From assembly GCF_037042905.1 (NCBI RefSeq), contig NC_087251.1:42286001-42350000 (forward strand): DNA of 64,000 nt, written 5' to 3'. Source of the DNA: Lytechinus pictus (Eukaryota). The notes beneath the pieces were generated by a model that made no database searches, was not told the DNA's origin, and saw only the letters and a program-made list of their open reading frames with translations. A program made the position numbers and the translations under genes. Numbering within the stretch: position 1 is the first letter of the stretch; every line of letters starts with the position of its first letter. Of the stretch, positions 475 to 22,528 are shown piece after piece.

Positions 475-3400
475 CTACTCTGGCAGATCATACAGCCTCC
501 GGGCGTTTGCATTCGCCACAGTGACCACCTCCGCAAAGGTCTCCCCCCTTCTCATGGCTATCTCCTGAGCGAGCTCACCTAAATACATCGGTGTATTCGC
601 CACAAGGGATCGCTCCGGTTTAAAATAAGGAGCGTCCGTTTCCAGAAGCAACCTTTCGATAGGGGTGTCCCTCAGCGCCTCATCCTGGGGGCCAGTGAAT
701 TCTCTCACCTTCCCAGTGAAGCCGAAGTGCGCTTGGGGAAATGCTTCGGACCATGTTCTCCGCTCCTCTTTAACAAGTGTGCAGCAATGGAGGTGAATCC
801 TCTGTTGGCGGGAACAATGTTCAACCAGCAATCGTCGGACATCTCGACTGATAGCAGTAGCACATGGATCCCCGGATGACCCACATAGATGTAGGATTAA
901 CACCTTATTCCCTATGGGCATTCCCAGAATCTGGACCAACATGTTGATCTGCTGCTCCCAAGTCGTGTCCGGGATAGAGAAGTCCAGGCCCAGCTCAGAG
1001 ACACCACAAATCCGCTGGCTGGCCAATAGCGATCGCAGTCTACTCATCGTCTTCATAGTCACATTAGTGGCCTTCTTTGGATGAATACCAACTGCCACCT
1101 TCCAACGGGGGTCCTCTGGATACCAGATTCTTCCCCACCGTTGGGGGTCACAATAGTTAAGTATCCCTCCGGTCACACGCACCGGTTTCAATGGTAACCG
1201 CCCGGGACAAGCTCGAAGAGCAGAAACCCCTCGCATTCCCAGGTATTGCTCCATTCTGTCCAGGTGTAAGTGACTATCAATGACGATTGGAAGTCTATCC
1301 CCCTCATACTCCACCGGTGCTAGGCTAATTCGCCCCGCACGGCTAATGCCTGTCTCGACAGATTCGGATGACCTTGGTCTAACCACAGGAGAAGGTGACG
1401 CAACAGGAGACTCGTCTCTCTGCCATTCACCAACCTGGCCCCGCGGTGTAGCCGATGTAGCAATTGCCCCCTCAGCTCCCAACGGAACCTCTGATACCCC
1501 TGGGGTTATTAACTCGGCAGCCTCAACCTGACTCACTGAAGGAGCCTGGGAGTCCTCGAGTTCCTCAACAGAGATTATCCGAACTACTTCCACCCTCTGG
1601 AAAGACTCGACAACTTCAGTTTGTGTATTAGGCTTGGGCGAGACAGCTCCAAACCTTGGGAAACCTTCGGCCAAACTCAACCTAGGTTTCCGCTCCGGGG
1701 ATGGTTGGGCAATTGTGGGCACTGCCATTCTTTGAGGGAGGAAGTTGCCCAGCCCTCGTAACACAGCAGGCGGCCTCACCACCCCAGAAGTACCTGGTTG
1801 AAACGGAATACCAGCTCTAATGAACCCCTGTTCAAATGCAGAACGATGGAAGCCTAATGACGGGTTAACTAATAACTCCCTCCAATGTTCTTCTGGTGTT
1901 GGGTCTGACAAACCTTGTGCAGACACATCGCCCAATTTAGATCCAGCGGAAGGGAAGTTCATTCGGGAGTTGATAAGCAACTCCTCAGAACATTCACCTG
2001 GCTTTAGATCTGGAACAGGTGACTCACTCTGCACCTCCATGGGAATCTCTGACAACTCCTCAGAGAATGCCTCTACCAACGGAGGAATAGAGCTGGTCTC
2101 ATCTGCAGCATCCGCTTCTTCCGACTTACTCATGGCAGCGTTCGCCTTGTCGGGCCGACTGGCTGTCGCGGAAATCTCATGTGTAACTGGTCTACCAGCT
2201 GCCGCGGGAATCTCTCGCGTATCTGGTCTACCGGCAGCCGCGGGAATCTCACGCGTCTCTTGCCTACCAGCTGCCGCAGGAACTTCGCGTGTATCTGGCC
2301 TACCAGCTGCCGCAGGAACTTCGCGCCGGTCCAGACGAATAGCTGCTTCAGGAACTTCACTTGTGCTTAAGCTTCCCAGCCTCTGTATACGGTCGTGGTC
2401 CTCGCGTCCCAGCCTTCCAACAAGAAAACCCAGGACTCTCCAATGAAGGAGTGCTACCCAGGAACTCAAGGGACGTAGGCCTATTGGGACCGAGCATACC
2501 CAGCCCCGATTCCTCGCAAAGGCGACCATCTCGGCCTGCCCTCGCTGCGCGAGTATCCCCACAGGGTCCGGACGTTCTAGGTCGACAAACCGACACAGAG
2601 CATCCAATGACCTCGTACCGATTAAACAAAGGGAGATCTCCCTCAGCACTTCCTCTCGCAACCCACTAAGCTCCGGGCGAGGATAGACGCTGCCCTTATG
2701 CTCCTGGAAGCACTCCGGCATATGAGAATAAACATGCCATTTCAGCTTCCCAGCGATCGCCCCACAACCTGGTATTAAACAGGGCTTCTTATAATAGCGG
2801 CCCCTCTTTTCCGGTATTTCATGGGTTGGGGCCTCTGAAGGCATGGAGGAAAACCCAGCGTGGGTCTTTCTTCCACCTGCAGGGGGCCCACCGCGGTTAC
2901 GACTGCGGGAGCGGTTCCGCTTCCGGGACTCATCCCTACCCTGATGCGAACCTTGTGTGGTTGGGTGGACATTCCGGTCCGCCCCAACTGAAGACTGCCT
3001 GGGAGCCGGTCCGGGAGGCGGCCCGGCAAATTCGCCCCGCCTTTCCTCTCGAGGACGGCTCACTCTGGCAGCTGAAGCTAGATGCGGACGATCGCCCGGC
3101 CTGGCTTCGGATGTTCCGCTCCGAGTGGAGGCAGTGGGAGTTGGGCCATCACTTTCGCTCTGCCTCGCTCCTGCCGTGCCACTCTGAGTAGACGCATTTG
3201 GAGTTGGGCGAGCATCCTCGCTCTGCCTCCCTCCTGATCTTTCTGTCTGAGTGGGCGAACTAGGAGCCGGTTGGGCACCTTCGCCCTCCCTGGCTGCTGG
3301 CTCACCTCTCTGAGTAGATGCTCCGTAGGTGGAGCGAGCACTTCCGCTCTGCCCGGCACCTGAGCCACTACTCCGTGTAGAAGCTGGGGTCGAGCGAACA

Positions 3401-4212
3401 TCATCGCTCCGCTCAGTTTCTCGCTGATTATTTCTGCTCTGCGGCTGGCCAGAGGTTGGGCGATTGGCATTAGCCTGCCCGCCTTGTGGCTTGTTACCAG
3501 GCGCGGGCCTCTTCTTACGTCTCCCACCACGGGGACGCCTCCCACGCCCAGATTGCCCAGAGCTAGAAGCACCAGTCGGCTGACGGAAAGTCCCGCTGGA
3601 TGCCCTTCCAGCCGGCGGGTTGGCTGGGTGAACTCCACCTTGCCTTCCTGCCGCTGCATTAGCGGAACCTGCCGACTGGCCGCTTGCCGACGCGTTGGGT
3701 GATGCCGGCGGGCGAGGCACTCCACTCCGCCTGCCTGCCGCAACGTCCGCGTATGAGGCCGACTGGCGAAATCCCCCGCCCTGACTGCCTCGCTGGCCGC
3801 GGTTCTGATAGGGCCTGGGAGCCGGAATCTCCTCACCCGGGGTCCAGAACTCCTCGTCCCTATCCGGAGGGATGGACCACGCGTCCATTCCATTTTCAGG
3901 TACGTTGCGGTGCCCCTCAATGTTGGGGACATTTAACAATACCCATTCGCGGTCTTTGAAAGTGGTTCGTAACAACCAATACTGGAGGCAGGTTATCCAC
4001 CTCCAGTCCCTACGCCTGAATGCAAAGCCATGTTGCTTTACGGCCAAGCATTCAAACGCCATTGGTGACATTTTTGTCGCCGAACGGCACACAAATGAAG
4101 GGTGGAGCAAAATGCCCGCATCTGTGGCCCCCCACACCCTTCTCCTCACTTGCTCCTCGTAATCTTCTCCCTCCTCCTCCGCACGTCTAGGTCGTCTTGG
4201 CCATCGGGGCAT
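475..4212 (-). CDS. Retrotransposon ORF3 (1245 aa): long R/S/G/Q-rich disordered region, C2H2-like zinc motif, 12-aa repeats, C-terminal TatD-family DNase domain (~478-1290)
   Basis: TatD motifs IDSHLHLD, VGIHP, SELGLD, ILHL, IHLHC, FGFTG, LLLETDAPY, NARRLY; motif CLIPGC-x9-HVYSH at ~2720-2781. Confidence 0.9.
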   Translation of the reverse strand: MPRWPRRPRRAEEEGEDYEEQVRRRVWGATDAGILLHPSFVCRSATKMSPMAFECLAVKQHGFAFRRRDWRWITCLQYWLLRTTFKDREWVLLNVPNIEGHRNVPENGMDAWSIPPDRDEEFWTPGEEIPAPRPYQNRGQRGSQGGGFRQSASYADVAAGRRSGVPRPPASPNASASGQSAGSANAAAGRQGGVHPANPPAGRASSGTFRQPTGASSSGQSGRGRRPRGGRRKKRPAPGNKPQGGQANANRPTSGQPQSRNNQRETERSDDVRSTPASTRSSGSGAGQSGSARSTYGASTQRGEPAAREGEGAQPAPSSPTQTERSGGRQSEDARPTPNASTQSGTAGARQSESDGPTPTASTRSGTSEARPGDRPHLASAARVSRPREERRGEFAGPPPGPAPRQSSVGADRNVHPTTQGSHQGRDESRKRNRSRSRNRGGPPAGGRKTHAGFSSMPSEAPTHEIPEKRGRYYKKPCLIPGCGAIAGKLKWHVYSHMPECFQEHKGSVYPRPELSGLREEVLREISLCLIGTRSLDALCRFVDLERPDPVGILAQRGQAEMVAFARNRGWVCSVPIGLRPLSSWVALLHWRVLGFLVGRLGREDHDRIQRLGSLSTSEVPEAAIRLDRREVPAAAGRPDTREVPAAAGRQETREIPAAAGRPDTREIPAAAGRPVTHEISATASRPDKANAAMSKSEEADAADETSSIPPLVEAFSEELSEIPMEVQSESPVPDLKPGECSEELLINSRMNFPSAGSKLGDVSAQGLSDPTPEEHWRELLVNPSLGFHRSAFEQGFIRAGIPFQPGTSGVVRPPAVLRGLGNFLPQRMAVPTIAQPSPERKPRLSLAEGFPRFGAVSPKPNTQTEVVESFQRVEVVRIISVEELEDSQAPSVSQVEAAELITPGVSEVPLGAEGAIATSATPRGQVGEWQRDESPVASPSPVVRPRSSESVETGISRAGRISLAPVEYEGDRLPIVIDSHLHLDRMEQYLGMRGVSALRACPGRLPLKPVRVTGGILNYCDPQRWGRIWYPEDPRWKVAVGIHPKKATNVTMKTMSRLRSLLASQRICGVSELGLDFSIPDTTWEQQINMLVQILGMPIGNKVLILHLCGSSGDPCATAISRDVRRLLVEHCSRQQRIHLHCCTLVKEERRTWSEAFPQAHFGFTGKVREFTGPQDEALRDTPIERLLLETDAPYFKPERSLVANTPMYLGELAQEIAMRRGETFAEVVTVANANARRLYDLPE
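2160..2360 (-). repeat. About 5 copies of a 36-bp coding tandem repeat in ORF3 (REV/IPAAAGRPDT)
   Basis: Repeats visible in both the DNA and the translation. Confidence 0.85.
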
Positions 4213-4220
4213 CTTCGGAT

Positions 4221-4248
4221 CTGAAATACAAACAGAGGGGAAAACACC
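4221..4248 (-). promoter_or_regulatory. 3' splice acceptor just upstream of the ORF3 ATG
   Basis: Minus strand reads GGTGTTTTCCCCTCTGTTTGTATTTCAG|ATCCGAAGATG; the ATG at 4212 is 8 nt into the exon. Confidence 0.65.
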
Positions 4249-4356
4249 ATTAGAATTTGGAAATAACTTCCCTCTGTCTTATCTCCCAGACCCCATAAAT
4301 AATATACCAAGACCCACATGTCCATTAGAGGTTCTTGAGAAAAGGAGTGGATTTCC

Positions 4357-7300
4357 CTAGGTCCTAGATGCGCATCCCGGACAATGGTATTCTTCATCCA
4401 ACCCCAGCATCTCGCCTTCCTCTTCGGACATTCCCACGCACTGACCGTGGAACCATTCTTCGCATTTATCACACTGGATCATAAATTTTCCTCCCCAGGG
4501 CTTCCTGCAAAGGCAATACACCTCCTCGTGCCTGTGCTTCTTCCCTTTCTTATTCGGAGGAATAGTCCGATCTCTGCATGGTTTCATGCGGTCATGGTTC
4601 ACCGTCATCCTAACATTCTTATACTCGACCCGGTACAGGAATGGAGACAGTCTCTCCACAATCAATGCAGGACCTTTCCAGGGAGGGCAAAGTTTCTTGC
4701 ACTTCCCTTTGGATTGAGCCGTGTCCAACAAGTATACTCGTTCACCTACCTCATACTTCCTCTGGAACACTTTCATGTCATAGTCCTTTTTCTGTCTTTT
4801 TTGGGTCTCTTTTAGATGAGACCTGGCCAGCGAGTGTACATCGGCTAATGTCTTACGCAGATTCGCACAGTACTCCTCGCTTTCTACTGGTTGTGCTGCT
4901 TGCGGCATCGGGAACAGTAAGTCCACCGGTTGGGTCACTTCCCTTCCAAGCATTAGCCGGTTGGGAGTAAATCCGGTGCTTCTATTCACTGTTGATCGTA
5001 TGGCCCCTGCGATTTGAGGAACAAACTCGTCCCAACTTCGCTGGTTCTTGCCTACGAAACAACGCACTGCATCCATCAGCGTCCGGTTAAATCGCTCCAC
5101 CTGACCATTGGCCGAAGGACGATAAGCCGTTGTTCTCGCCTTATGTATTTGCAACATCTTACACATGCTTGTAAACAAACGACTCTCGAAATTACGGCCT
5201 TGGTCGGTGAAGACCTGCAGGGGACACCCGAAACGGCTGAAGAAATGGTCCACCGCTGCTCGGGCTGTCACTTCTGCGGTCTGTGAAGGCAAAGGTATGC
5301 ACTCCACCCATTTCGTGAATTGATCAACCATTACCAGGATATTCTCGTTCCCATTCGCCGTTTTTGGCAGGGGACCCAAGAAATCCAAGTGCACCCTTTC
5401 CATGGGGTAGCCAGCATGATAGCTGATCATAGGGTTCCTCCCGTGTCTGGCAGACTTCTTGCATTGGTTACAGGTTGGACATTTGCGGATAAAGTCACTC
5501 ACATCCTTCCCCATACCATACCAGAAGAACCGCCTCTTCATCTTGGAGATCACCCTTACATTGCCAGCATGCCCTGCCAAGGGCAAATCATGGTTAAGTC
5601 TAACCAATTCTTCCCTCATAGAGTGAGGAATGAGAAGTAAATCCCCTTCGCCCTTGTTCTGGTAAATTACCCCATTTTCCAGGTGAAATGTATCCTTGTT
5701 GATCCACAGGTTCTTCTGCTCGGGACTCCATAACATCATAGTTCCCTCGCTAGGTTCTTCACCTGTGGCCAACCATTCCCGTAATGGAAGAAATTCTGGA
5801 TCTTTGTCTTGTTCTTCTTTCAATCTCACGGCTGGGGGTGTTTCTGGCTCCTCGACCACCTGGGAGATATTCAGTTCCTCGGTGATCGGTCTGGAGCTCT
5901 CAACTACCTCGTCCGACCGTAAATCCGATCTCACGGCCGGGGGTGTTTCTGGCTCTTCGACCGCCTGGGAGATATTCTGTTCCTCGGCGATCAGCCTTGA
6001 GCTCTCAACTACCTCTTCCGACCGTAGATCAGGGTCCGATTTCACCACCATGTGGGTTGTCCAAAACCCTGACTCAAGGTTTTGGCCAATGGTGTTTTTC
6101 CGTTCTCCTGTGACTGATGCCAAGGGAACTACGTCATCCACCTCTTCTACAAAAGGAGCCCAGTTCCGGTGAGCCTTCTCACAGTAGGGGCACCCACCAC
6201 AAGGAAGATCTTCTAACTTGAATCCTAGCCGGAATTCTTCGCAGAAGAGCTCAGTGTCAGGAACTCGAGACAATGCGTCCGCATTCCCATGCTGTTTCCC
6301 CGGGCGGTGTATCACCTTCATCTGATACTGACTTAGTTCTTCCAACCATCGGGCTATTTGCCCTTGAGGATGTTTGAAGTTCATCAGCCAGATGAGACTA
6401 CTGTGATCTGTGCGCACCAAAAACGAGTTACCTAAAAGGTAGTGGCGGTACTGCCGTGTGAACTTCACCACTGCTAGGAGTTCTCTCCTTGTCACACAGT
6501 ACCTTCTCTGTTCGGGAGACAGTGATATGCTTCCGTAGGCCACTACTCTCTCTTGTCCATCCTGAACCTGGAGTAACTCCGCGCCGATAGCCTCATTCGA
6601 AGCATCGGTGTCCAGGATGAATGGATCCTGCAAGTTGGGCATGGTCAACACTGGGGCTGAGGTAAGCAGCTCCTTTATAGAGTCAAACGCCTCCTGTTGT
6701 TCAGGTCCCCAGCAGAACATGTTTTTCCCAGTGATCTTGTACAGAGGAACAGCCGCCGCTGCATAATTCTTGATGAAGGTCCTGTGATAGTTCACTAACC
6801 CCAAGAATCTCTCCACTTGTTTCGTGTTGCGCGGCGCTGGCCAATTCCTCACTGCTTCAATCTGATCTGGTTTCAGAGAGATCTTGTTTTCTCCTACATT
6901 CCGGCCCAGGAACTCTACCTCGCGCCGGAACAATTCACACTTCTTTGGTTTCAGCTTCAACTTGAAGCTTCTAAACCTTTCTAAGACCTCCCTCAAGTTA
7001 TTCATGTGATCCTCAAAAGACTTTCCCAGAACTACTACATCATCGAGGAATGCTAGGACTATGTCCCAATTCAAACCTCTTAAGATTAAGTCCATGGCTC
7101 GTGAGAAAGTCGCGGGAGCGTTGCACAATCCAAAACCCATCCTCACAAATTCGTACAATCCGTACTTTGTGGTGAAAGCAGTCTTCTTGCGATCCTCTTC
7201 CGCTATTTGGACTTGCCAATACGCAGAGTTCGCATCCAGCTTGGAAAACCAACGCGTCCCGGAAAGGGTATCCAGACACTCCTCGATATTCGGGAGGGGA

Positions 7301-8592
7301 TATACATCTTTCTGAGTGATCTGATTGAGTCCTCGGTAATCTACACACCAGCGGACTCCCCCATCTCTCTTCCGTACCAGTACAGGTGCAGACGCCCACT
7401 CCGATTGTGAAGGCTGAATAACCCCAGCCTCCTTCATTCGTTTCAGCACTGCCTTTTCTTCTTCTGCGAAACGCATCGGCGTTCTTCGCATCTTGTGCTT
7501 TACTGGGGCTGATGTACCTGTCTCTATCTTGTGCTCAATAGCTGTAAATTCTCCTAAGTCGAAGTCGTGACGGGCAAACGCGTCTCCGAACTCCCCCAGG
7601 ATACGCCTAAGTTCAGCTTCCTGTTCAGAGTTCAAGAGTTCCGAAGATCGGTCATACAAATCCTGTAAATGTTCTGGCACCTCTTCCGCCACGTCCTCTG
7701 TTAAGCAGTTGACTTTAGGTTCCAGCTCTTGAGGCGCCGAATGTGACCTGGTTTCCTCATCTCTTTCTGGAAGAGAAGATGGCACCTGAGCCACAGCCAC
7801 TGCCTCGAAGACCCGGCCTATTATCTTGTTGCCCTCCAGATGGACTACTCTGTCGGTTGGGTTCAAAACATACAGTTGAATGAGCGTACCTCCGTCATGT
7901 AGCGACCTAGGTGCTAGAGCGGGTAATACGGATGATGGCTCAAAAACACAAGCGTTCATCCTCTGGTCTATTACCCCGGTGACACGCTTCAGTGTGTTGG
8001 GTGGGATGGTGGTCCGGTGTGAGGTGCTAACTCTGGCTACTCGTCCACCATTCCGACCAACTCCGAACTTCATGGGTATCCGTTCATCCCCCATAAGCAG
8101 CTCCTTACTACTTATAAGGATATCGATTGAATGCTGCTCAAGAAAATCTAGCCCCAACAGCATGTCATCCGCTATCGATGCTGTGTAAATGTTACCGGGA
8201 AAACACTTTCTTCCAATTCCTACCTCCACTGGGCCGATCACTGCTCCTTGCAAGCGTGTATCTCGGCCAGCGGTGCTCAAAACAACTTCCTTCACCAGGG
8301 GCGGGGCAGGGTCAAGTAGTTTCATCACTCGATCCGAGATAATGGTCACTTCTGCAGCAGAATCTACCACTGCGTCAAGTGTAACGCCATTCACCTTTAC
8401 CTCTACTCTCAGCATCGAGGACGAACGAAGTTGACAGACCACTACCTCCTGCGGAGATTCCAACTCCGGTTCTTCCCATTGGGTAGGGAGGACGTTGCTC
8501 TCTTCTTCACCAGCTGATAATTCTACCTCTGAGGAATGCGGATCCTCGTCTTCCAGTTCCAGTTGGTTTACATATTCCGCTAACACCTTCAT
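4357..8592 (-). CDS. pol: Gypsy Pol polyprotein: aspartic protease, reverse transcriptase, RNase H, integrase, C-terminal PHD finger; probably translated by -1 frameshift from gag (frame open from ~8745)
   Basis: PR AVVDSAAEVT; RT RWCVDYRGLN, KTAFTT, FGLCNAPATF, FLDD; RH ILDTDAS, TDHSSL; IN HDLPLAGH...CPTC, VHLDFLGP, TDQGRNF, NGQVERFN, WKGP; PHD YCLC...MIQCDKCEEWFHGQC...CPGC. Confidence 0.97.
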   Translation of the reverse strand: MKVLAEYVNQLELEDEDPHSSEVELSAGEEESNVLPTQWEEPELESPQEVVVCQLRSSSMLRVEVKVNGVTLDAVVDSAAEVTIISDRVMKLLDPAPPLVKEVVLSTAGRDTRLQGAVIGPVEVGIGRKCFPGNIYTASIADDMLLGLDFLEQHSIDILISSKELLMGDERIPMKFGVGRNGGRVARVSTSHRTTIPPNTLKRVTGVIDQRMNACVFEPSSVLPALAPRSLHDGGTLIQLYVLNPTDRVVHLEGNKIIGRVFEAVAVAQVPSSLPERDEETRSHSAPQELEPKVNCLTEDVAEEVPEHLQDLYDRSSELLNSEQEAELRRILGEFGDAFARHDFDLGEFTAIEHKIETGTSAPVKHKMRRTPMRFAEEEKAVLKRMKEAGVIQPSQSEWASAPVLVRKRDGGVRWCVDYRGLNQITQKDVYPLPNIEECLDTLSGTRWFSKLDANSAYWQVQIAEEDRKKTAFTTKYGLYEFVRMGFGLCNAPATFSRAMDLILRGLNWDIVLAFLDDVVVLGKSFEDHMNNLREVLERFRSFKLKLKPKKCELFRREVEFLGRNVGENKISLKPDQIEAVRNWPAPRNTKQVERFLGLVNYHRTFIKNYAAAAVPLYKITGKNMFCWGPEQQEAFDSIKELLTSAPVLTMPNLQDPFILDTDASNEAIGAELLQVQDGQERVVAYGSISLSPEQRRYCVTRRELLAVVKFTRQYRHYLLGNSFLVRTDHSSLIWLMNFKHPQGQIARWLEELSQYQMKVIHRPGKQHGNADALSRVPDTELFCEEFRLGFKLEDLPCGGCPYCEKAHRNWAPFVEEVDDVVPLASVTGERKNTIGQNLESGFWTTHMVVKSDPDLRSEEVVESSRLIAEEQNISQAVEEPETPPAVRSDLRSDEVVESSRPITEELNISQVVEEPETPPAVRLKEEQDKDPEFLPLREWLATGEEPSEGTMMLWSPEQKNLWINKDTFHLENGVIYQNKGEGDLLLIPHSMREELVRLNHDLPLAGHAGNVRVISKMKRRFFWYGMGKDVSDFIRKCPTCNQCKKSARHGRNPMISYHAGYPMERVHLDFLGPLPKTANGNENILVMVDQFTKWVECIPLPSQTAEVTARAAVDHFFSRFGCPLQVFTDQGRNFESRLFTSMCKMLQIHKARTTAYRPSANGQVERFNRTLMDAVRCFVGKNQRSWDEFVPQIAGAIRSTVNRSTGFTPNRLMLGREVTQPVDLLFPMPQAAQPVESEEYCANLRKTLADVHSLARSHLKETQKRQKKDYDMKVFQRKYEVGERVYLLDTAQSKGKCKKLCPPWKGPALIVERLSPFLYRVEYKNVRMTVNHDRMKPCRDRTIPPNKKGKKHRHEEVYCLCRKPWGGKFMIQCDKCEEWFHGQCVGMSEEEGEMLGLDEEYHCPGCASRT
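5823..6030 (-). repeat. 105-bp (35-aa) in-frame tandem duplication in the RNase H-integrase linker
   Basis: DLRSEEVVESSRLIAEEQNISQAVEEPETPPAVR followed by DLRSDEVVESSRPITEELNISQVVEEPETPPAVR. Confidence 0.9.
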
Positions 8593-8645
8593 AAACTCTG
8601 GAAGACCGGCTACACCTTCCTCAGGTTTGTCTGTAGTTGGGTGAC

Positions 8646-10853
8646 CTATTGTTGCTCGAGCCAGGGTGTGGCCTCCCTCTCCTCCTCTGACTCGCTCGAG
8701 TTTGACGCCTCCTCTTCCCTGAGGACCGAAGCGGAAGCCACGGGGCTTTTATCAGGACAATCTTTCCTAAAATGTCCCGGCTTACCACACTTGAAACAGC
8801 CCTCAGTCCTGGGTGCAGGGGATGGCGATCTCCCTCGTCTTCCTATTTGTGACATTCTTCTATTAAGATTATCCATGGAGGACTGCAGTTTCTCGAATTT
8901 CTCATCCCAATCGGAAACCCTCTCCTCCAAAGCCCGCGTGCGATTATCCAACGCTGACACCAACTTGGTCAAGCTTTCACCCTCTGAAGATATCTTACTC
9001 GAAGTGCCAGGCACTGAGCTGTTCTTCTCCAGCCGGGGTTTATTAGCTGGCGGGGGGGCACCAATCTGTTGGATCACTGCCTCTTCAGATGACCAAGCAT
9101 CTTGTGGCCAATGGACTATCTTGACCTCTGGTCTCCTCTGCCTGCCATACACAACCTTTTTCGAATGTATATACCAAGTCACATGATCCACAGCCTTCTC
9201 AACTGAGTCCGGCCGTAAGTTCAGGGCGTGCAAACCAGCTTCCCGTTCAGAACACCCCTGACAAAACTTCAATACCCCTTGTCTCTGTACTTGAGACTCC
9301 GGAACCCCTGGGAAAGTTTTAACAGCCAGGCTGACCACACGGTCAGCCCACTCCATGATTCCTTCCTCAGCCAGCTGGTGCGCCCGCATGAACTCCATTT
9401 GAGCTACCTCTAGAGGATCATCCGCGCCAAACCGGCGCTCCATCCTCCTCACCAGATCTTCAAAAGACATGTCTCTGTCACGCGACATCAGTAATGAGAA
9501 ATAGTCACTTCCAATACCTTTCATGCACCACCACATCTGATATTTCCTTTGAATGGAGGACCAGCCCTGCTCATCCGCATAGGCCATGAACTTGAGGTAA
9601 AACCCTCTCCAGCTCCCTCGACCATCATAGTTAATGGTCTTGGGGAGCGAACCCATGTGGCTCAATGACTGTGAACCCATTTGCCTGGAGCGGCCAGTAG
9701 TCTTGTGTGTAGAGATATTCCCCGAAGACTGGCTAGTGGTGGGGCTCTGGGGTAGCTGATGTGTTGCGGCCTGGTGCGGCTGGAACGCCCTTGACTGTGG
9801 TGGTGCCGGCTGGCAAGCTGTTGTTTGGACTTGCATCTGATTAGTCTGTGCATGTCGAGATGATGGGACTTGTGATACCGGCGTTGTTGTCATCTGATAG
9901 GATCCAACCGCTGCCGGTTGCACTGGCGGTGCCGCCTGCGGCTGCGGCAGTGGAGCCGCTGGTAGCTGTGGCGGCGCCTGTGGCGGTACCTGTGACGTTG
10001 CGGGCGCCTGCGCGCACCTCAGCGGTACACGCGTATACCATACAGTAGGCATGCGCGGCACTGGGGCCGCTGTTACTCTTGGCGGAGGGCCAGCCGATAA
10101 CTGCGGCGGTGGACCCACTGGGTCTACAAGAGGTTGGGTCGTCGCACTTTGTGGTGATTCTGTCGCTAACAGCTGGGCCGGTGGAACCAATGGGGCTCGT
10201 GGTGTTGCCGGCACTGTGGGTGGGCCAGATAGCCGCCTGACTGAAACATCATACTCCGACAAGTTGGGACCTGGTCTGGTCTGATGTAAGATCTGATGGG
10301 GTTCTTGGCCCCCAGTGCCTGGTTGTGAAGTTGGAGCTTGCACCCTTTCCAGCTGGGCTGGGCGTAAGACCTGCTGTGAGGGATTAACTTGCAACCCCTC
10401 CTGTAAAACTCTACCACCAAAGCCTGGGTGGGACTCTGACTGCCACCACCTCTCGGATACTCCTGGAGGGGGCGGATACCTCTGCCACCGATAAAATGCT
10501 GGGCTAACCTCCTGCACCGGGCTGGGTGCATGGGAAGACTGAAACAACTCTCCATCCGCTCCTATAGGTTCACCCATGATACCTCTATCATGATCCAGCA
10601 ACCCTTGTGCAAGCCCAGTAGACTGTTGTGATGCCGTACTAAAGGGCGTGAAGTCAAGCTGATCCAAAACCTCTTCCGGCAATGAAACCAATGACGAGAA
10701 ATAATCCCTTGTGATACCACCTTTACGTTCCAACAGCAAGCCTGCCACAGCATGACTTACTCCTGGAATGCCCACGAGTTCGTCATATGAACACTCGTTC
10801 ACCGGAAGTGGGCCTTCAATAACCTCAAAAGGGCTTACTATATCTGACAACAT
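8646..10853 (-). CDS. gag: Gag-like protein (735 aa): N-terminal HhH-like motif, P/Q-rich linker, capsid-like core, coiled coil, CCHC zinc knuckle
   Basis: YDGRGSWRGFYLKF-type Gag core; CFKCGKPGHFRKDC knuckle; lies directly upstream of pol. Confidence 0.92.
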   Translation of the reverse strand: MLSDIVSPFEVIEGPLPVNECSYDELVGIPGVSHAVAGLLLERKGGITRDYFSSLVSLPEEVLDQLDFTPFSTASQQSTGLAQGLLDHDRGIMGEPIGADGELFQSSHAPSPVQEVSPAFYRWQRYPPPPGVSERWWQSESHPGFGGRVLQEGLQVNPSQQVLRPAQLERVQAPTSQPGTGGQEPHQILHQTRPGPNLSEYDVSVRRLSGPPTVPATPRAPLVPPAQLLATESPQSATTQPLVDPVGPPPQLSAGPPPRVTAAPVPRMPTVWYTRVPLRCAQAPATSQVPPQAPPQLPAAPLPQPQAAPPVQPAAVGSYQMTTTPVSQVPSSRHAQTNQMQVQTTACQPAPPQSRAFQPHQAATHQLPQSPTTSQSSGNISTHKTTGRSRQMGSQSLSHMGSLPKTINYDGRGSWRGFYLKFMAYADEQGWSSIQRKYQMWWCMKGIGSDYFSLLMSRDRDMSFEDLVRRMERRFGADDPLEVAQMEFMRAHQLAEEGIMEWADRVVSLAVKTFPGVPESQVQRQGVLKFCQGCSEREAGLHALNLRPDSVEKAVDHVTWYIHSKKVVYGRQRRPEVKIVHWPQDAWSSEEAVIQQIGAPPPANKPRLEKNSSVPGTSSKISSEGESLTKLVSALDNRTRALEERVSDWDEKFEKLQSSMDNLNRRMSQIGRRGRSPSPAPRTEGCFKCGKPGHFRKDCPDKSPVASASVLREEEASNSSESEEEREATPWLEQQ

Positions 10854-11083
10854 GATGTATCAATTAAAAATAACAACTTTCCAAAACACAAAATTACCTT
10901 AAAACCCAATTGGGTAACACCCCACTCCCCGTCAAACAAAAAGGCGAACCACCGGGGTGAGAAAAAACCCTAAAGACAGAAATCAGCACCTGCAAAGAAA
11001 AATATACCAACGCTTAGTCGGCCTAAACTAACAAGTACCAACTCTTCGGTGGTCTAAGAAAAAAACGAAGTCCAAACACAGCA

Positions 11084-11538
11084 GAATTAATCTCTAAATG
11101 TAGTAGAAAAAATAATCCAGGAAAGGTGTCCCTTTAAGTTCAGAAAACACAAGAATTAATTTCTAGATGTAGAAAAAATAATTCGAGAAAGGTGTCCCTT
11201 TAACTTCAAAAGACCCACGAATTAATATCTAGATGTAGAAAAAATAATTCGAAAAAGGTGTCCCTTTAACTTCAGAAAACCCCCGAATTAATATCTAAAT
11301 GTAGAAAAAATAATTCAGGAAAGGTGTCCCGTTAAGTTTAGAAAACACAAGAATTAATTTCTAAATGCAGAAAAATAATTCTAAAACGGTGTCCCTTTAA
11401 CTTCAAAAGACCCACGAATTAATATCTAGATGTAGAAAAAATAATTCGAGAAAGGTGTCCCTTTAACTTCAAAAGACCCACGAATTAATATCTAGATGTA
11501 GAAAAAATAATTCGAAAAAGATGTCCCTTTAACTTCAA
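11084..11538. repeat. Leader tandem array A: 7 units of ~66 bp
   Basis: Unit GAATTAATWTCTAGATGTAGAAAAAATAATTCGARAAAGGTGTCCCTTTAACTTCA... starts at ~11084, 11153, 11219, 11285, 11351, 11416, 11482. Confidence 0.93.
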
Positions 11539-11746
11539 ACACCAAAGTCAAATGCTAGATTCTGAAGAAGAATTCAAGATCACGTAAAGGACCCTAGCCC
11601 GGTAAGCTAGGAAAGTGTGCATCAAACGTCCAAGTCAAGAAGGTAACAGAACCTTGTAGCTCTAATTGTAGTCCAAATGTAAACACACCAGAAAAATAAA
11701 TACTAACACCTATCGTTAGTCTAAAAAAATATAACAACAACAGGGG

Positions 11747-12355
11747 GACTAAGACGGGAGACTTATCCCTTTAATCCAAAATTAATCCTTATAACAGTCA
11801 CAAATAATCCGGAAATAACTAGACTAAACGGGGAGACTTATCCCTTTAATCTAAAAATATTTTTGTAAAGAGCCAAAAAATATTTTTATACCGCTAAACT
11901 AAACAGGGAGACTTATCCCTTTAATCCAGAAATATTTTTGTAAAGAGCCAAAAAATATTGTATACAGCTAGACCAAACAGGGAGACTTATCCCTTTATTC
12001 TAGAAATATGGTTGCAGAAAGCTGAAAAATATTTTATTACAGCTAAACTAAAGAGGGAGACTTATCCCTTTAATCTCAAAATATTTTTGTAAAGAGCCAA
12101 AAAATATTTTATACAGCTAAACTGAACAGGGAGACTTATCCCTTTAATCTAGAAAATATTTTTGTAAAGAGCCAATAAATATTTTATAACAGCTATACTA
12201 AAGAGGGAGACTTATCCCTTTAATCTCAAAATAGTTTTGTAAAAAGCTGAAAAATATTTTATCACAGCTAAACTAAAGAGGGAGACTTATCCCTTTAATC
12301 CACAGATATTTTTGTAAAAAATAATGTGAGTCAGGAACTATGTCCCTTTAATCCA
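11747..12355. repeat. Leader tandem array B: 8 units of ~75 bp plus a partial unit
   Basis: Core GGGAGACTTATCCCTTTA recurs at ~11756, 11831, 11906, 11980, 12055, 12130, 12205, 12280. Confidence 0.93.
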
Positions 12356-13125
12356 ACTCAGCGTATCACGCAAATATCTAGAAATAAGATAGACGAATAG
12401 GTCTCAGCGGAAAGTCTACCCCTGTTCTTACAAACAAGATATAAAATAAAATATAAAAGAAATCAAAAACTAGCCTAGAATATGTAGCACAGCCCAACTA
12501 GGAACTGCAACTACTCCGTCACTCTGACAGATCGATGCAGGCGCCAGACACACTCTCACTGCTAGATCTATGAAAACGCTATCGGTATGACGACAGGCAC
12601 ACTCTCACTGTTCGGGTCGGTCAAAACGAAACGATAGTGCTATACGCCGCAGGTCACAACGAAACGATATTGCTAGACGCCTTAAACGATACCCACACTC
12701 TACACGGCAGATCGTAAGCTCCGTGCCCAATGTGACCGCTGCGATACCAAAACGATATCCAAAGCCAACGGAAAATCCCCAAAACGCACGTGGAGAAATA
12801 TTCACCTCGAGATGGTTGCGAGGGAGCGCGATAGATAATTGAACAACTTGAGCAAGTTCAATCACCACTCGAAAAGTTTGCAAATCACTAAAACGTGAAT
12901 CTAAATAACACACAACACAAGCTCAGCACCCTGCAAAATATCACAAGCTCAGCCCCGGAAAGTTAACAGTCCCACTGTCACCCTCTCCCCCGCCAACGCA
13001 AGCAAATTTCACCCCGTACTGACGCATGTGCGATAGACACAATAAATCACTGCTGACCGCCACCGAGCAAGCAGCGGGCAGCTATAGGCCTAGCAGTCAC
13101 CACGACTCCGCAAACGCGATTCGCA

Positions 13126-13140
13126 CTGCTGACTACGCCA
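13126..13140 (-). promoter_or_regulatory. Primer binding site complementary to the tRNA-Ser 3' end
   Basis: Minus strand TGGCGTAGTCAGCAG, 1 nt inside the LTR end; the usual tRNA-Ser PBS is TGGCGTAGTCGGCAG. Confidence 0.88.
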
Positions 13141-13141
13141 A

Positions 13142-13570
13142 TGTTGTTCGAGTGCTCAGTTCGAACAATCTTAAAAGTGGAAATGTACTGCACAAAAGAC
13201 GAAATACATGCATCACATATATTCAGTCAAAAGTATATTGACTCACCGTAAGTTCTGTCCCACGATGAATCCAGTAGAACAACTGAACAGGTAGAAAACA
13301 GCAATATAACTCAGCAATAACAACAGTATAACTTCTCAATAGGTTGGTTCCAGTACATCTCTCAGCAGTATCCAAAGATGGCGATGCCGTCCGCATCCTC
13401 CATCACGGGGTGTCGAATCCCTGCTTCTGATTGGTCACCTCTGGTGAAGTTGCACGCGGCACTACATCTTGGCTTGCCATGAGGTCTCCAGCAGCAGACG
13501 ACGATGGTAGCAGACGACAAGGATCAGTAGCTGAAAACGCCAAATCGGCCTGGCCGTTTTCACTACAACA
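13142..13570 (-). repeat. 5' LTR (429 bp)
   Basis: Inverted ends TGTTGT...ACAACA abut the PBS; contains a CCAAT box (minus, ~13430), a YY1-like CGCCATCTT (minus, ~13375-13383) and a GTGAGT donor (minus, 13241-13246). Confidence 0.85.
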
Positions 13571-16500
13571 TGTACGAGTATGACTGTCAGTGGACCAAGG
13601 AGTCGGACTAGATCTAGATCTACTCTCGGTCAATAATGGCAATGAAGTCTTAGCCAGGAATAAAAGTCATAGTCAGACATCAAAAATTTCTAAACCGATT
13701 TTAGGGTTTAGAACCGAAGCTTTACTTTCTAGGTCTAGATAGATCGAGAGTCCATCTTTAGTCTAGATCTAGACCTAATTTAGATACATGAATGCTGTCG
13801 CACAGCATTGAGTCTCGTTGGACTAGATCTATACTTTCTTACAAATAGATCTAGACCTAGTGCATGAGATTATGAAATTATGTTAAAATCTAATGAAATA
13901 AGATTCGGAAATAAAAAGATCCAGATTTTTTTTTTTTTTGGGGGGGGGGGGGGCAGACATGTGAAAAAATTTAGAGAAACCTAGAATTCAGAAAGCGAGG
14001 GCCAGAAGCGACCAATATTACCTAGGGCCGTTTTGTGCATTTTCTAAAGTAAAATTGAAGGATGTCATGCAATTCTCTTTTTGATGAAGGTTTTCACATT
14101 TCTGATTTCAGCTCTTACCCAAACCCCTCCCCCTATACATACGGCCATGAAAAAGATCACTTCTTATTATTGTTCTCTCTCTTTCACAAACAGGTTGAGT
14201 TTGAAGAACAAGAAAAACAGTAGAGGTCTATATATGGTTCAAGATGATGATCATAAGTGCATGCATCATTTTGCAGATTCTCATCCAGGTATAAAACTTA
14301 AACTAACCCATACAAAATTACAGATACATTGCATGCATTGAATGTTAACCATGTTTACATTAAATAAAAATAATCTGAGCTACAAAGAGGTAGGATCTGT
14401 AATGAATATACACTTCTTAAATATACAGGCTCTCGAGTCTAAAATAGAACCAATGCCAAAAGTTATGTACCTTGGACAAATTTATAAAATAAGGTCATGT
14501 CCTTGATCTACTAGTAATTAAATGGCCTTTTTATTTCCTATTTGTTTATAAACAAAGTGTAGGGATTGATTTTGTACTTATATTTCTTTCCACTCTTATC
14601 CAGGAATCATCCCCTTTTTCTAATAGAACATCCCTCATTTATATTCACCCTTTTCATCCTAACTTCCTATTCTTCATGTATAGCTCTCTCTTACACATTA
14701 ACTGCTGTACACTCCGTACACAAGGTTCTTTGGTATCAATTCACTCCACCATCCTTCATACAGCTTTCTTCACTCCTCTCTCTCTCTCTCACTCTCCTTC
14801 CTTGGTTATAATGTTAAGTTGATGCACTCAAGCTTAGATAATAATTTGCATATAGTTTGAATGGTCAATATATATCCTTTGTTTGTATATTTGAATATTC
14901 AGTTATACTTTGTTAATTGATTTACATTTATATGAATATTGATGTGCCTTAATTAATTTGCATGGAATGTTACAAAGAATGCAACAAGGCTTTGAGTCAT
15001 TAAAATCTGGGAGTTGGCCAGTAAGTTATCAACCTGACAACATGTCTGCTGGGCTGCCTCTGTGTTAAGAGTACTAGAAATGAGATATTGTCAGAACCCC
15101 GTACTACACAAAGCAATATTTATTTTTCATATTTTACAAAATTCATTTTATGCATTCTTTAGTGTGATATTCATATTTCATATTTGTAGATTTACGATTT
15201 TTTTTAAATCTTGTTATTTTACATTTTGTCCAATAGGATGATGCAGTTTTACAATTTCCATGGAGGTGATTGATGATGATAAACAATTGGTGAAGTAGGC
15301 CTAATAGAACAGTGATAGGACCACAAAGAGAAATACAACCTACAGCAGTTATATGAGTGAGTTAATAAGTGATTATTTTTAATAATGGGGGGTTTTCACA
15401 ATATTTTTAGGCAACAAATAGACCTGCCTTTGAAAAAAACATTTCAATTCTGTTTTTAGGTTATAGATAGGTGTCGTTTTTATTCGCAGATCAAAATATT
15501 CTGTGCAACAAAACATCATCTTTAATTCTGACTATTATATATAATTTATATATGTTAATTCATATATTCATATTTATGGGAAATCTCTGACATTTTTTTT
15601 ATATAGTACATGTAGTTATAATGGAGAGTGGTATGCAAACTGCATAGAACAGGTTTAAGTGATATGCTTTGTAGAAGTACAAGTTTATAATTAGTAGAAG
15701 TAAGATTTCCTATGTTATGTGATGAAGAAATTTATATACCGGTATGTATAGTCTTACTTTTCTTAAAACATTTATGTTTTACAAATCATGACAATTTTAA
15801 TTTAAATTCATTGATTTTCTTTCTCTATTTTTTCAATCTGCAGGACTGGTGTAACAGATGTTTTCATTCAAGAAACCCAACAAATTGAAGAGTGACTTAG
15901 CTTAGGAAGCACTTGATAAAGATGGAAAAGGTTTTTTTTTTTCAAGTCCAATTTTTTTTTTTTAAATTATCATCACAACCCCAAATTCATGAAGTATGAA
16001 ATTTCCTGTCGATTTTCATTAAAACTGGTTGCAAAAGGAAAAGCTATAAACATACAAATAGGAGCGGCGAAGTGAAGTTGAAAGTGGGGGGGGGGGCACA
16101 GGGAAAATGCTGTATTATGTGAAATTTTAAAGAAGTTGCGAGAGAGCAAAATTTTGACATTTTAAAAAAGAAAATCCAATTTTGTGATAGATTTCGACAA
16201 AATATTCAGAATGATATATTTCACCCTTTTTTTTTGGGGGGGGGGCAAGAGTCCTTCAGGCCCCCCCCCCCCTCCATCTGTAGTGTACGAAACTGCTTAT
16301 CTACCCCCACTCACATGAATTATTAAACTTAATGCACAAAGGATTTCCTTATTGTTTTCTTGTTTCAAAGGGCACTCGTCATTCTTTAGGAGCACTTTTC
16401 TTGGATAAATGGGGGCAGTTATTCGAGAAAGGGCACTTACAAGAAGGCGAGGGGGTACTTTTTAACACTTAAAACGGGCCCTCAGATGAAAGGGCACAGA

Positions 16501-21563: not shown

Positions 21564-22492
21564 TCTACTGATAGCTCTTGAAGGGGGGGGGGGATGAGTT
21601 ACCCTTGAATATTATTGTTGAATATTCAGCTCAATATATTGCTTTGACCCCCATCCCTTCACACACGTTTTGTATATCCCCGTCTACTAACAGCTCTGGG
21701 GGGACCATTTTTTTTTTAACTCAACATAATTATTGCTCTCACACCCCCCCCCCCCGATCAGATGAATTACGCCACTTGACGTGCGTGATTTCAATTGCAA
21801 TATAGCCCCAAGATCCACTGACTATTTATTTAGCTTACACATTAAAAAAAACTGGAGAGTTGTCAAACTCAACACAAATATACAATAAAATAACAACAAA
21901 ATAACATACTATAGAAAAAAAGTATTAAAAAAATTGAGAACTTAGTACAATAAAGATAATAAAATGTTGAAATTTTTTACCCCCGTCTCCCACACTCGAT
22001 CTATTACGTATTAGACAATGATATGAAATTATGCTGATCTGCCTTTATTTGCGCACGACATTCTTAACTAAAGTCATGATATGACCATTGATATAATGGA
22101 TTATAAATTTTCATAGTTTGATCACACCATATCCACTTTAAATCCCTGGAAATTCCAGCAACAATACATGTTGTCATGGTACGACACACATTTTCTTTAT
22201 TGAAAAGTATCACGACACCAACGTTGAAACTGTGCAAAGGTCTTTAATGGCGAACTCCACTGGGTTGATACCATATATCTCTATGGTTGATACATAGCCT
22301 ATGGGTGATGAACATACGTGTTGTATGCAATTGATGTTGTCTAGTTATTACAGAAGACACCATTGGTCAAAAACTCTATCTGTATGAAGTTTAGGCCAAT
22401 CAGAAGAATTGATCCAAACCTTACAGATTTTCTCACATTTTTTGTATGGAGCTCGCCTTGACGAGATCTGAGCGGCAGATCTAGCCTTAGTT

Positions 22493-22528
22493 ATGGATGA
22501 AAATCTGGATTTTACGTCTCAAAAAAGA
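22493..22528 (+). CDS. IFT43: IFT43 candidate first coding exon ([12 protein letters not shown])
   Basis: ATG...AGA|GTGAGT phase 0 fits the next exon; CCAAT at ~22397 upstream. Confidence 0.65.

Follow-up and report, generated by a model that had tools for sequence, protein, structure and literature searches.

A Ty3/Gypsy retrotransposon clade of echinoderms and molluscs ends its integrase in a conserved PHD finger of predicted H3K4me3-reader type

What does a PHD finger do at the very end of a retrotransposon integrase? The question is raised by a stretch of 64,000 nucleotides of Lytechinus pictus (NC_087251.1, positions 42,286,001 to 42,350,000; the window hereafter, with position 1 as its first letter). 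From the sequence of the window, the initial annotation proposed that this finger reads H3K4me3 and steers integration to marked promoter chromatin, much as chromodomains are used for targeting by chromoviruses. We find that the PHD feature is real and conserved and that its assignment as a reader is likely right; steering to promoters is unproven and weaker than first proposed.

The element spans G000:C7:42284750-42299567 (14,818 bp) and is intact: its two 426-bp LTRs show 0 differences, the primer-binding site, purine tract and 4-bp target-site duplication are present, and gag, pol and ORF3 are all open. Its parts are as follows (window positions unless stated otherwise):

475 to 4278, minus strand: ORF3, 1267 codons, in the env slot, with a C-terminal TatD-family nuclease domain at about 490 to 1281 (PF01026, E 4.7e-30)
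4357 to 8748, minus strand: pol open reading frame, 1463 codons from stop to stop, with protease, RT, RNase H, integrase and PHD finger
4522 to 4563, minus strand: variable linker, predicted to be flexible, with KKGKKHR at 4531-4551 (mean amino acid identity 0.17, pN/pS 0.78, pLDDT below 50)
4564 to 5631, minus strand: integrase, with H2C2 zinc finger, catalytic core, helix and beta-rich C-terminal domain with WKGP (PF17921, PF00665, weak PF22938; secondary structure)
8646 to 10859, minus strand: gag open reading frame, 737 codons, with CCHC zinc knuckle
11042 to 12341, no strand: two tandem arrays in the 5' untranslated region, with units of about 66 bp and about 75 bp
13122 to 13141, minus strand: primer-binding site, starting TGGCGTAGTC and adjoining the 5' LTR
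13142 to 13567, minus strand: 5' LTR, 426 bp, TG...CA, same sequence as the 3' LTR
G000:C7:42284750-42285175, outside the window: 3' LTR
13568 to 13571, no strand: one copy of the 4-bp target-site duplication (ATGT in element orientation), within a large interspersed repeat

The start of pol overlaps the end of gag in a different frame, and the primer-binding site TGGCGTAGTC is presumably of the tRNA-Ser type. Together, the order protease, RT, RNase H and integrase, the direct TG...CA LTRs, the primer-binding site, the purine tract and the short target-site duplication place the element in Ty3/Gypsy. No envelope protein, as expected of an errantivirus, is found in ORF3, where TatD is the sole Pfam match; the TatD domain retains its His, Glu and Asp motifs. 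Likewise, no chromodomain is matched in Pol at E 0.01, and the PHD finger lies 4 residues from the end of the protein. The element is therefore a Ty3/Gypsy with a chromovirus-like layout, lacking the chromodomain that would make it a chromovirus.

The finger itself is described by the following features:

4372 to 4521, minus strand: PHD finger (C4HC3), Pol residues 1410-1459, with matches to PF00628, DIDO1 and 4L7X
4516-4518 (Y1411), 4495-4497 (W1418), 4480-4482 (M1423) and 4453-4455 (W1432), minus strand: residues at cage positions
4468 to 4470, minus strand: D1427, directly after the third Cys of the PHD finger

On the minus strand, 4372-4521 translates as VYCLCRKPWGGKFMIQCDKCEEWFHGQCVGMSEEEGEMLGLDEEYHCPGC; the residues ASRT come next, before the stop codon at 4357-4359. 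A single reading frame of 1463 codons joins this sequence to protease, RT, RNase H and integrase. Pfam PF00628 matches Pol residues 1412-1459 (E 3.1e-8, 34 bits against a cut-off of 24), and this C4HC3 ligand pattern above the Pfam cut-off, together with a match to the PHD fold, identifies a true PHD finger. The claim that such a finger closes the integrase behind its GP motif is thereby confirmed.

Readers of methylated H3K4 can be recognized by an aromatic cage, formed by Y before Cys1, M or Y before Cys3 and W two residues before the His (PMC10124903, PMC8246079); it is present in H3K4me3 readers and absent from H3K4me0 readers (PMC10124903), and the Met takes part in Kme3 binding in DIDO1 and TAF3 (PMC8246079). 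All three residues, as initially annotated, are found in the window PHD (Y1411, M1423 and W1432), and W1418 aligns with a His of DIDO and Y17 of BPTF, which is the fourth cage position. In a comparison with PDB sequences the closest solved chain is DIDO1 4L7X (E 2e-18), with PHF2, PHF8, KDM7A, BPTF, PPS, Cfp1 and Spp1 among the other top matches; for a second family of the same clade the closest solved relative is Cfp1 9C0O. The C4HC3 spacing and the Y, M and W positions are shared with DIDO1, BPTF, CFP1 and PHF2, whereas these are host chromatin proteins and hold His (DIDO1) or Tyr (BPTF) at the fourth position, which is W here. An AlphaFold model built on a 10-sequence alignment (mean pLDDT 70.5; block means of 72-80 for the PHD finger and below 50 for the linker) superimposes its PHD finger on the DIDO-H3K4me3 complex (4L7X) with an rmsd of 1.3 A over 51 columns. 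Given the pTM of 0.34, the domains have no fixed relative placement in this model.

The window PHD probably binds methylated H3K4. Sequence, predicted fold and also selection (see below) all give good support to the proposed assignment to the H3K4me3-reader type, which predicts such binding. It might be argued that the cage is made for the methyl-lysine of a non-histone protein or for a different histone site, given that the close relative PHF2 binds a VRK1 peptide (7M10, 8F8Y) and that PHD fingers with atypical targets are known (PMC10124903). However, both the beta-strand motif and the conserved acidic residue that follows the third Cys match canonical readers of the H3 N-terminus, and we consider such a ligand highly improbable.

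To describe how far the feature extends, we used the integrase C-terminus as a query against the genome; of 473 candidates 150 were scored, and the best 30 loci were cut out. A PHD finger ends the integrase in 29 of these (one with an internal stop). The best loci fall into 10 families, of which the other nine are 46-50% identical to that of the window. A database profile search gave 178 proteins at E <1e-25; among the 120 of these that were listed, 117 carry a complete PHD finger after the GP motif and then a tail whose median length is 5 residues. Such frequencies, 29 of 30 loci and 117 of 120 listed homologues, show that the domain is not at the integrase end by chance. The named sources of the homologues are sea urchins, a sea star, a crinoid, a mussel, a scallop and a snail; two more come from clam-symbiont MAG entries, which are probably host DNA. 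In public annotations the proteins of the clade are called 'uncharacterized' or 'NYNRIN-like'.

Retention of the cage is nearly complete among the 117 PHD fingers of the listed homologues (W in 117, M in 116, Y/F in 111, and Y/F, M and W together in 110), and the acidic D after the third Cys is found in 107; at a non-cage comparison position the top residue reaches just 23 of 117. The fourth cage position is more variable (D 43, W 39, Y 17). This set is biased towards good fingers, because the search profile included the PHD finger. An exhaustive search yielded 146 further matches, 45 with a complete PHD finger behind the GP motif and 101 without that pattern; all three cage residues are kept in 36 of these 45 more divergent fingers.

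Selection acts on the finger as well. In the comparison of the 10 families, the PHD finger has a pN/pS of 0.30 and its core one of 0.19, against 0.34 in the integrase C-terminal domain and 0.78 in the linker, with saturation of synonymous sites; between the window copy and a 94% identical copy the PHD finger shows 6 synonymous and 2 non-synonymous changes. We conclude that the PHD finger is under purifying selection. The idea that it is a neutral passenger captured from a host gene is refuted by this selection and by retention in 10 of 10 aligned families, in 117 of 120 listed homologues and across two phyla. As to a host donor gene, a database search with the PHD finger only returned one fungal protein; host PHD fingers in the genome are interrupted by introns. 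Unrelated PHD fingers, some with cage-like residues, also occur in long reading frames of other repeats (L268, L272, L266, L267, L269).

The basic stretch KKGKKHR fares differently. It is present upstream of the PHD finger, as annotated, but in the alignment it is confined to the window's own family (1 of 10), and we reject it as a conserved functional motif.

The phylogeny fits a single origin. A quick RT-RNase H tree of 46 rows (9 others were left out for short coverage; the PHD label of row L226 was taken from a separate analysis) places 32 PHD carriers, together with 2 rows whose finger is truncated or degenerate, on a single branch (SH-aLRT 100, length 1.26), separate from 12 PHD-less Gypsy elements of the same genome. 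This is consistent with, and does not prove, a single capture of the PHD finger, as the PHD-less rows of the tree are limited to these 12 elements. Several families of the clade (L104, L134, L146, L108) have noncanonical LTR ends (TA...TA, TG...TA, TA...CA) with clean 4-bp duplications. In the family of L147/L224 (G000:C3:56786991) the PHD finger continues into a further Cys-rich tail, and no TatD was found in the copy of this family in which it was looked for.

TatD is a second accessory of the clade: where other PHD families have resolved copies, 16 of 17 include an ORF3 with this domain, against 0 of 20 copies of PHD-less Gypsy. The combination suggests a host-conflict toolkit. In one reading the PHD finger would work on the element's own chromatin once integration is complete, or as a decoy; by binding H3K4me at the new LTR, or by titrating host readers, it would keep the copy active or help it to evade silencing. 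Chromatin restructuring has indeed been proposed for PHD fingers borne by transposable elements (PMC8557442; bioRxiv 2022.06.16.496473). Yet the finger is placed exactly where chromoviruses have their targeting chromodomain (PMC13524379), and it is carried by a protein that is made in small amounts behind gag. Overall, we regard a post-integration or decoy role as improbable.

For an interpretation of the insertion sites it is relevant how old the copies are. We read eight LTR-bounded copies of the window's family, whose LTR pairs differ at 0, 0, 0, 0, 0, 1, 4 and 11 positions; the family is therefore very young. All three frames are open in two copies, one has a pol split by a frameshift and no ORF3, and five match pol over residues 15-457 only and thus are without RT and integrase. 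These five non-autonomous copies (G000:C8:23447786, C5:22643910, C3:63841628, C16:276860 and C3:76052140) retain gag and protease, most of them with young LTRs, and were presumably moved in trans. RNA reads cover the LTR thinly, on the sense strand of the element. In one run, 15 reads exit the LTR at a GT donor-like site (L006:8854, which equals window 13246 in the 5' LTR); their onward sequence was not found in the eleven regions searched, and they possibly represent a spliced, LTR-driven transcript.

The window copy lies inside a non-coding interspersed repeat that extends from L006:7558 to about window 21200 and has at least 40 copies (40 scored of 196 candidates), at 1.19 kb from the repeat end. 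A sister copy on C3 is inside the same repeat, 0.65 kb from that end; the two window-family copies struck this repeat 546 bp apart. The end is sharp and starts CAAAGACC, the motifs TAGATCT/TAGGCCT are abundant near it, and one strand there has an RNA depth of 1-4. Among the spliced host exons seen in RNA, the one closest to the window copy, at a distance of about 9 kb, ends at 22528; its joint to 30316 is found in 14, 17 and 19 reads. From an ATG and an upstream CCAAT we infer that it is a first exon. The spliced host transcript (window 22460-22528 and 30316 onward, plus strand) holds a short frame starting MDENLDF.

Target sites of the clade were then compared with those of PHD-less Gypsy elements and with random DNA. 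Both ends were fetched for 26 PHD-clade and 24 PHD-less elements, next to 20 arbitrary 10-kb stretches; 9 of the 26 and 4 of the 24 had no resolvable end pair and were dropped before counting. The 17 resolved PHD-clade elements and the 8 window-family copies make up 25 sites, against 20 PHD-less ones; further LTR copies located for three families lie outside this sample. Target duplications of the form RTAY are found at 3 of 25 PHD-clade sites versus 17 of 20 PHD-less sites (p 9e-7, at a background of 2.2%, with copies of the same family not independent as to the enzyme). This contrast may be unrelated to the PHD finger, because the compared groups are different clades; the strong preference for ATAT/ATAC/GTAT (17 of 20) is common to PHD-less Gypsy from several branches (L151-L198). 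A strong DNA-sequence preference is absent at the targets of the PHD clade.

Proxies for promoters, uncalibrated on true promoters of this genome, give a mostly flat picture. For the CpG observed/expected ratio of the flanks, four window sizes between 250 and 2000 bp all show no difference between PHD-clade sites and either PHD-less Gypsy or random DNA (p 0.3-0.9, 23 versus 17 sites), and promoter motifs summed over seven sets show no excess at PHD-clade flanks (p 0.3-0.7). GC content within 1 kb on either side is slightly raised, at 0.385 (24 sites) versus 0.371 for PHD-less elements (p 0.03) and 0.365 for random DNA (p 0.004); the difference is small, and it is not significant at 500 bp (p 0.06-0.08) or, with respect to PHD-less elements, at 2 kb (p 0.88). 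A Pfam scan of flank ORFs (48 and 52 of 116 listed ORFs), which proved too insensitive, returned transposon domains apart from a single host exon in the vicinity of each group.

A known or suspected 5' end is close to 5 of the 25 PHD-clade sites, a set selected post hoc; the other 20 do not belong to this category. Two of the five are the copies in the interspersed repeat described above, at 1.19 and 0.65 kb from the end of this weakly transcribed repeat. Another two are located behind 5' LTRs of other Gypsy elements, at distances of 0.52 and 1.64 kb, and a copy of another PHD-clade family lies 1.35 kb past the first coding exon of a BLTP1-like gene. Other copies sit in a tandem repeat, in AT-rich DNA or in inverted-repeat elements. 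A post hoc candidate, a cluster of TAGATCT/TAGGCCT near the sites, was rejected: its excess in the window family (7 of 23 versus 3 of 59, p 0.004) was seen at one threshold, other families gave 3 of 15 (p 0.09) and the signal was lost at higher thresholds, so that it does not count as support; the literature search found no link of these motifs to promoters.

These data argue against sharp targeting of CpG-rich promoters and are compatible with a loose bias. In retroelements that target promoters, with Tf1- or MLV-like behavior, insertions are enriched at transcription start sites or H3K4me3 peaks. If the clade behaved in this way, most new copies would insert within about 1 kb of H3K4me3-marked promoters, and selection and missing annotation would hide the pattern. 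The complete four-position cage, the five 5'-proximal sites and the absent DNA-sequence preference fit such behavior. Against it, the window copy is not at any host exon seen in RNA, and most of the examined copies are young, as their LTRs are near-identical, yet their flanks are not promoter-like. We judge sharp targeting of transcription start sites to be distinctly improbable. Of the steering to promoters that was initially proposed, the sharp form is not borne out by these indirect tests, given the lack of CpG or motif excess and a window copy that sits in a repeat about 9 kb from the nearest spliced host exon seen; what is left are weak signs in its favor, namely the flank GC, the missing RTAY preference and a few 5'-proximal sites.

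Strong conservation of the cage together with flat CpG and motif profiles, and sites scattered in repeats, could also point to a general chromatin anchor. The finger would then bind methylated H3K4 and raise integration efficiency, or hold the complex on chromosomes, with little effect on the site. A tether to a punctate mark should nevertheless leave a bias, and flank GC is indeed slightly raised; moreover, an engineered PHD tether did move the sites of HIV-1 (PMC8149907). An anchor of this kind seems rather unlikely to us.

The reading that we prefer is that the PHD finger binds methylated H3K4 and tethers the integration complex to active nucleosomes, which would result in a loose bias to open, 5'-proximal chromatin and not in sharp promoter targeting; we give it about even chances. 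Observed are the in-frame fusion, the intact cage, clade-wide retention, purifying selection and the lack of a strong target sequence. In the proposed mechanism, the protease would leave the PHD finger on the mature integrase, and the cage would, with high probability, bind H3K4me3 or H3K4me2. Thanks to the flexible linker, the finger may hold on to an H3 tail nearby during cutting of the target DNA by the core, a role like that of chromodomains in chromoviruses; for this step the chances appear slightly better than even. Selection against promoter insertions would blur the pattern among surviving copies. Since a fusion of the ING2 PHD finger with the integrase-binding domain of LEDGF sends HIV-1 to transcription start sites (PMC8149907), a tethering mechanism is feasible.

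How does the element compare with known systems? The analogy with chromoviruses holds for the position: in both, a reader of histone marks is the last Pol domain, behind the GP motif of the integrase. It does not hold for the domain, as the element has a PHD finger in place of a chromodomain, is predicted to read an active and not a heterochromatic mark, and carries a TatD ORF3; while chromodomains are reported to direct integration (PMC6673714, PMC13524379), targeting is only proposed here. Gypsy-7a_cRei and REM1 of Chlamydomonas have a Gypsy-type polyprotein with a PHD finger as well, for which a role in safe or targeted insertion has been proposed (bioRxiv 2022.06.16.496473). Their hosts are green algae instead of animals, and the legend for Gypsy-7a places the PHD finger before the integrase. 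In the ESM Atlas, a comparison with the integrase C-terminus plus PHD finger gives scores of 0.92 and 0.89 for two PHD clusters that are mostly from chlorophytes; green-algal elements may share or parallel the C-terminal layout. Ginger1-9_HM combines a Gypsy-like integrase with a C-terminal PHD finger too, but it is a DNA transposon, its PHD finger is listed with a Ulp1 domain, and it is one family of 16 in the table (PMC2836005).

A mobile-element enzyme is coupled to an epigenetic reader in three further cases. The PHD finger of SpRAG2L binds H3K4me2 (PMC7204232) and, unlike that of the element, resides on a separate subunit of a DNA transposase. In CopiaMBD of arthropods (PMC6673714) the MBD reads DNA methylation, and the ING2-PHD-LEDGF fusion is artificial. 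Transposon PHD fingers are furthermore known from CR1, Rehavkus and Chlamys elements (PMC8557442) and have been termed widespread by De Mendoza et al. (PMC6673714). Plant Selgy elements, considered as further PHD carriers, were discarded, as PHD has 0 occurrences in the main text of PMC6317226; that paper and bioRxiv 10.64898/2026.05.21.726589 serve as background only. Our literature search, which covered sources other than Repbase, GyDB and subscription reviews, found no animal Gypsy clade with a PHD finger at the integrase end and no description of a TatD retrotransposon. Two surveys that cover these hosts (PMC6238403, PMC13524379) have 0 occurrences of 'PHD' outside their supplements.

What could this mean for the clade? 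Tentatively, and with more doubt than confidence, we picture an old and widespread Gypsy clade of echinoderms and molluscs that captured an H3K4me3 reader once, and that uses it instead of a DNA-sequence preference to enter active chromatin, with promoters of other active transposons among its targets. Such a clade would be a natural active-chromatin mirror of the chromoviruses, with a TatD nuclease, in which W, Y, D or H at the fourth cage position tunes families between H3K4me3 and H3K4me2.

Most retroelements that favor active chromatin use a borrowed host tether. A self-encoded H3K4me3 reader on the integrase would, if true, be nature's own experiment on whether target choice needs more than a single small reader domain; for a PHD finger, the only demonstration so far comes from an engineered fusion (PMC8149907). 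In this genome the clade is young and active. It comprises at least 10 families, and PHD-less Gypsy elements serve as built-in controls, so that existing resequencing data and chromatin maps can settle the question. If insertions do favor 5' regions, the clade would be a source of regulatory variation in echinoderms and molluscs.
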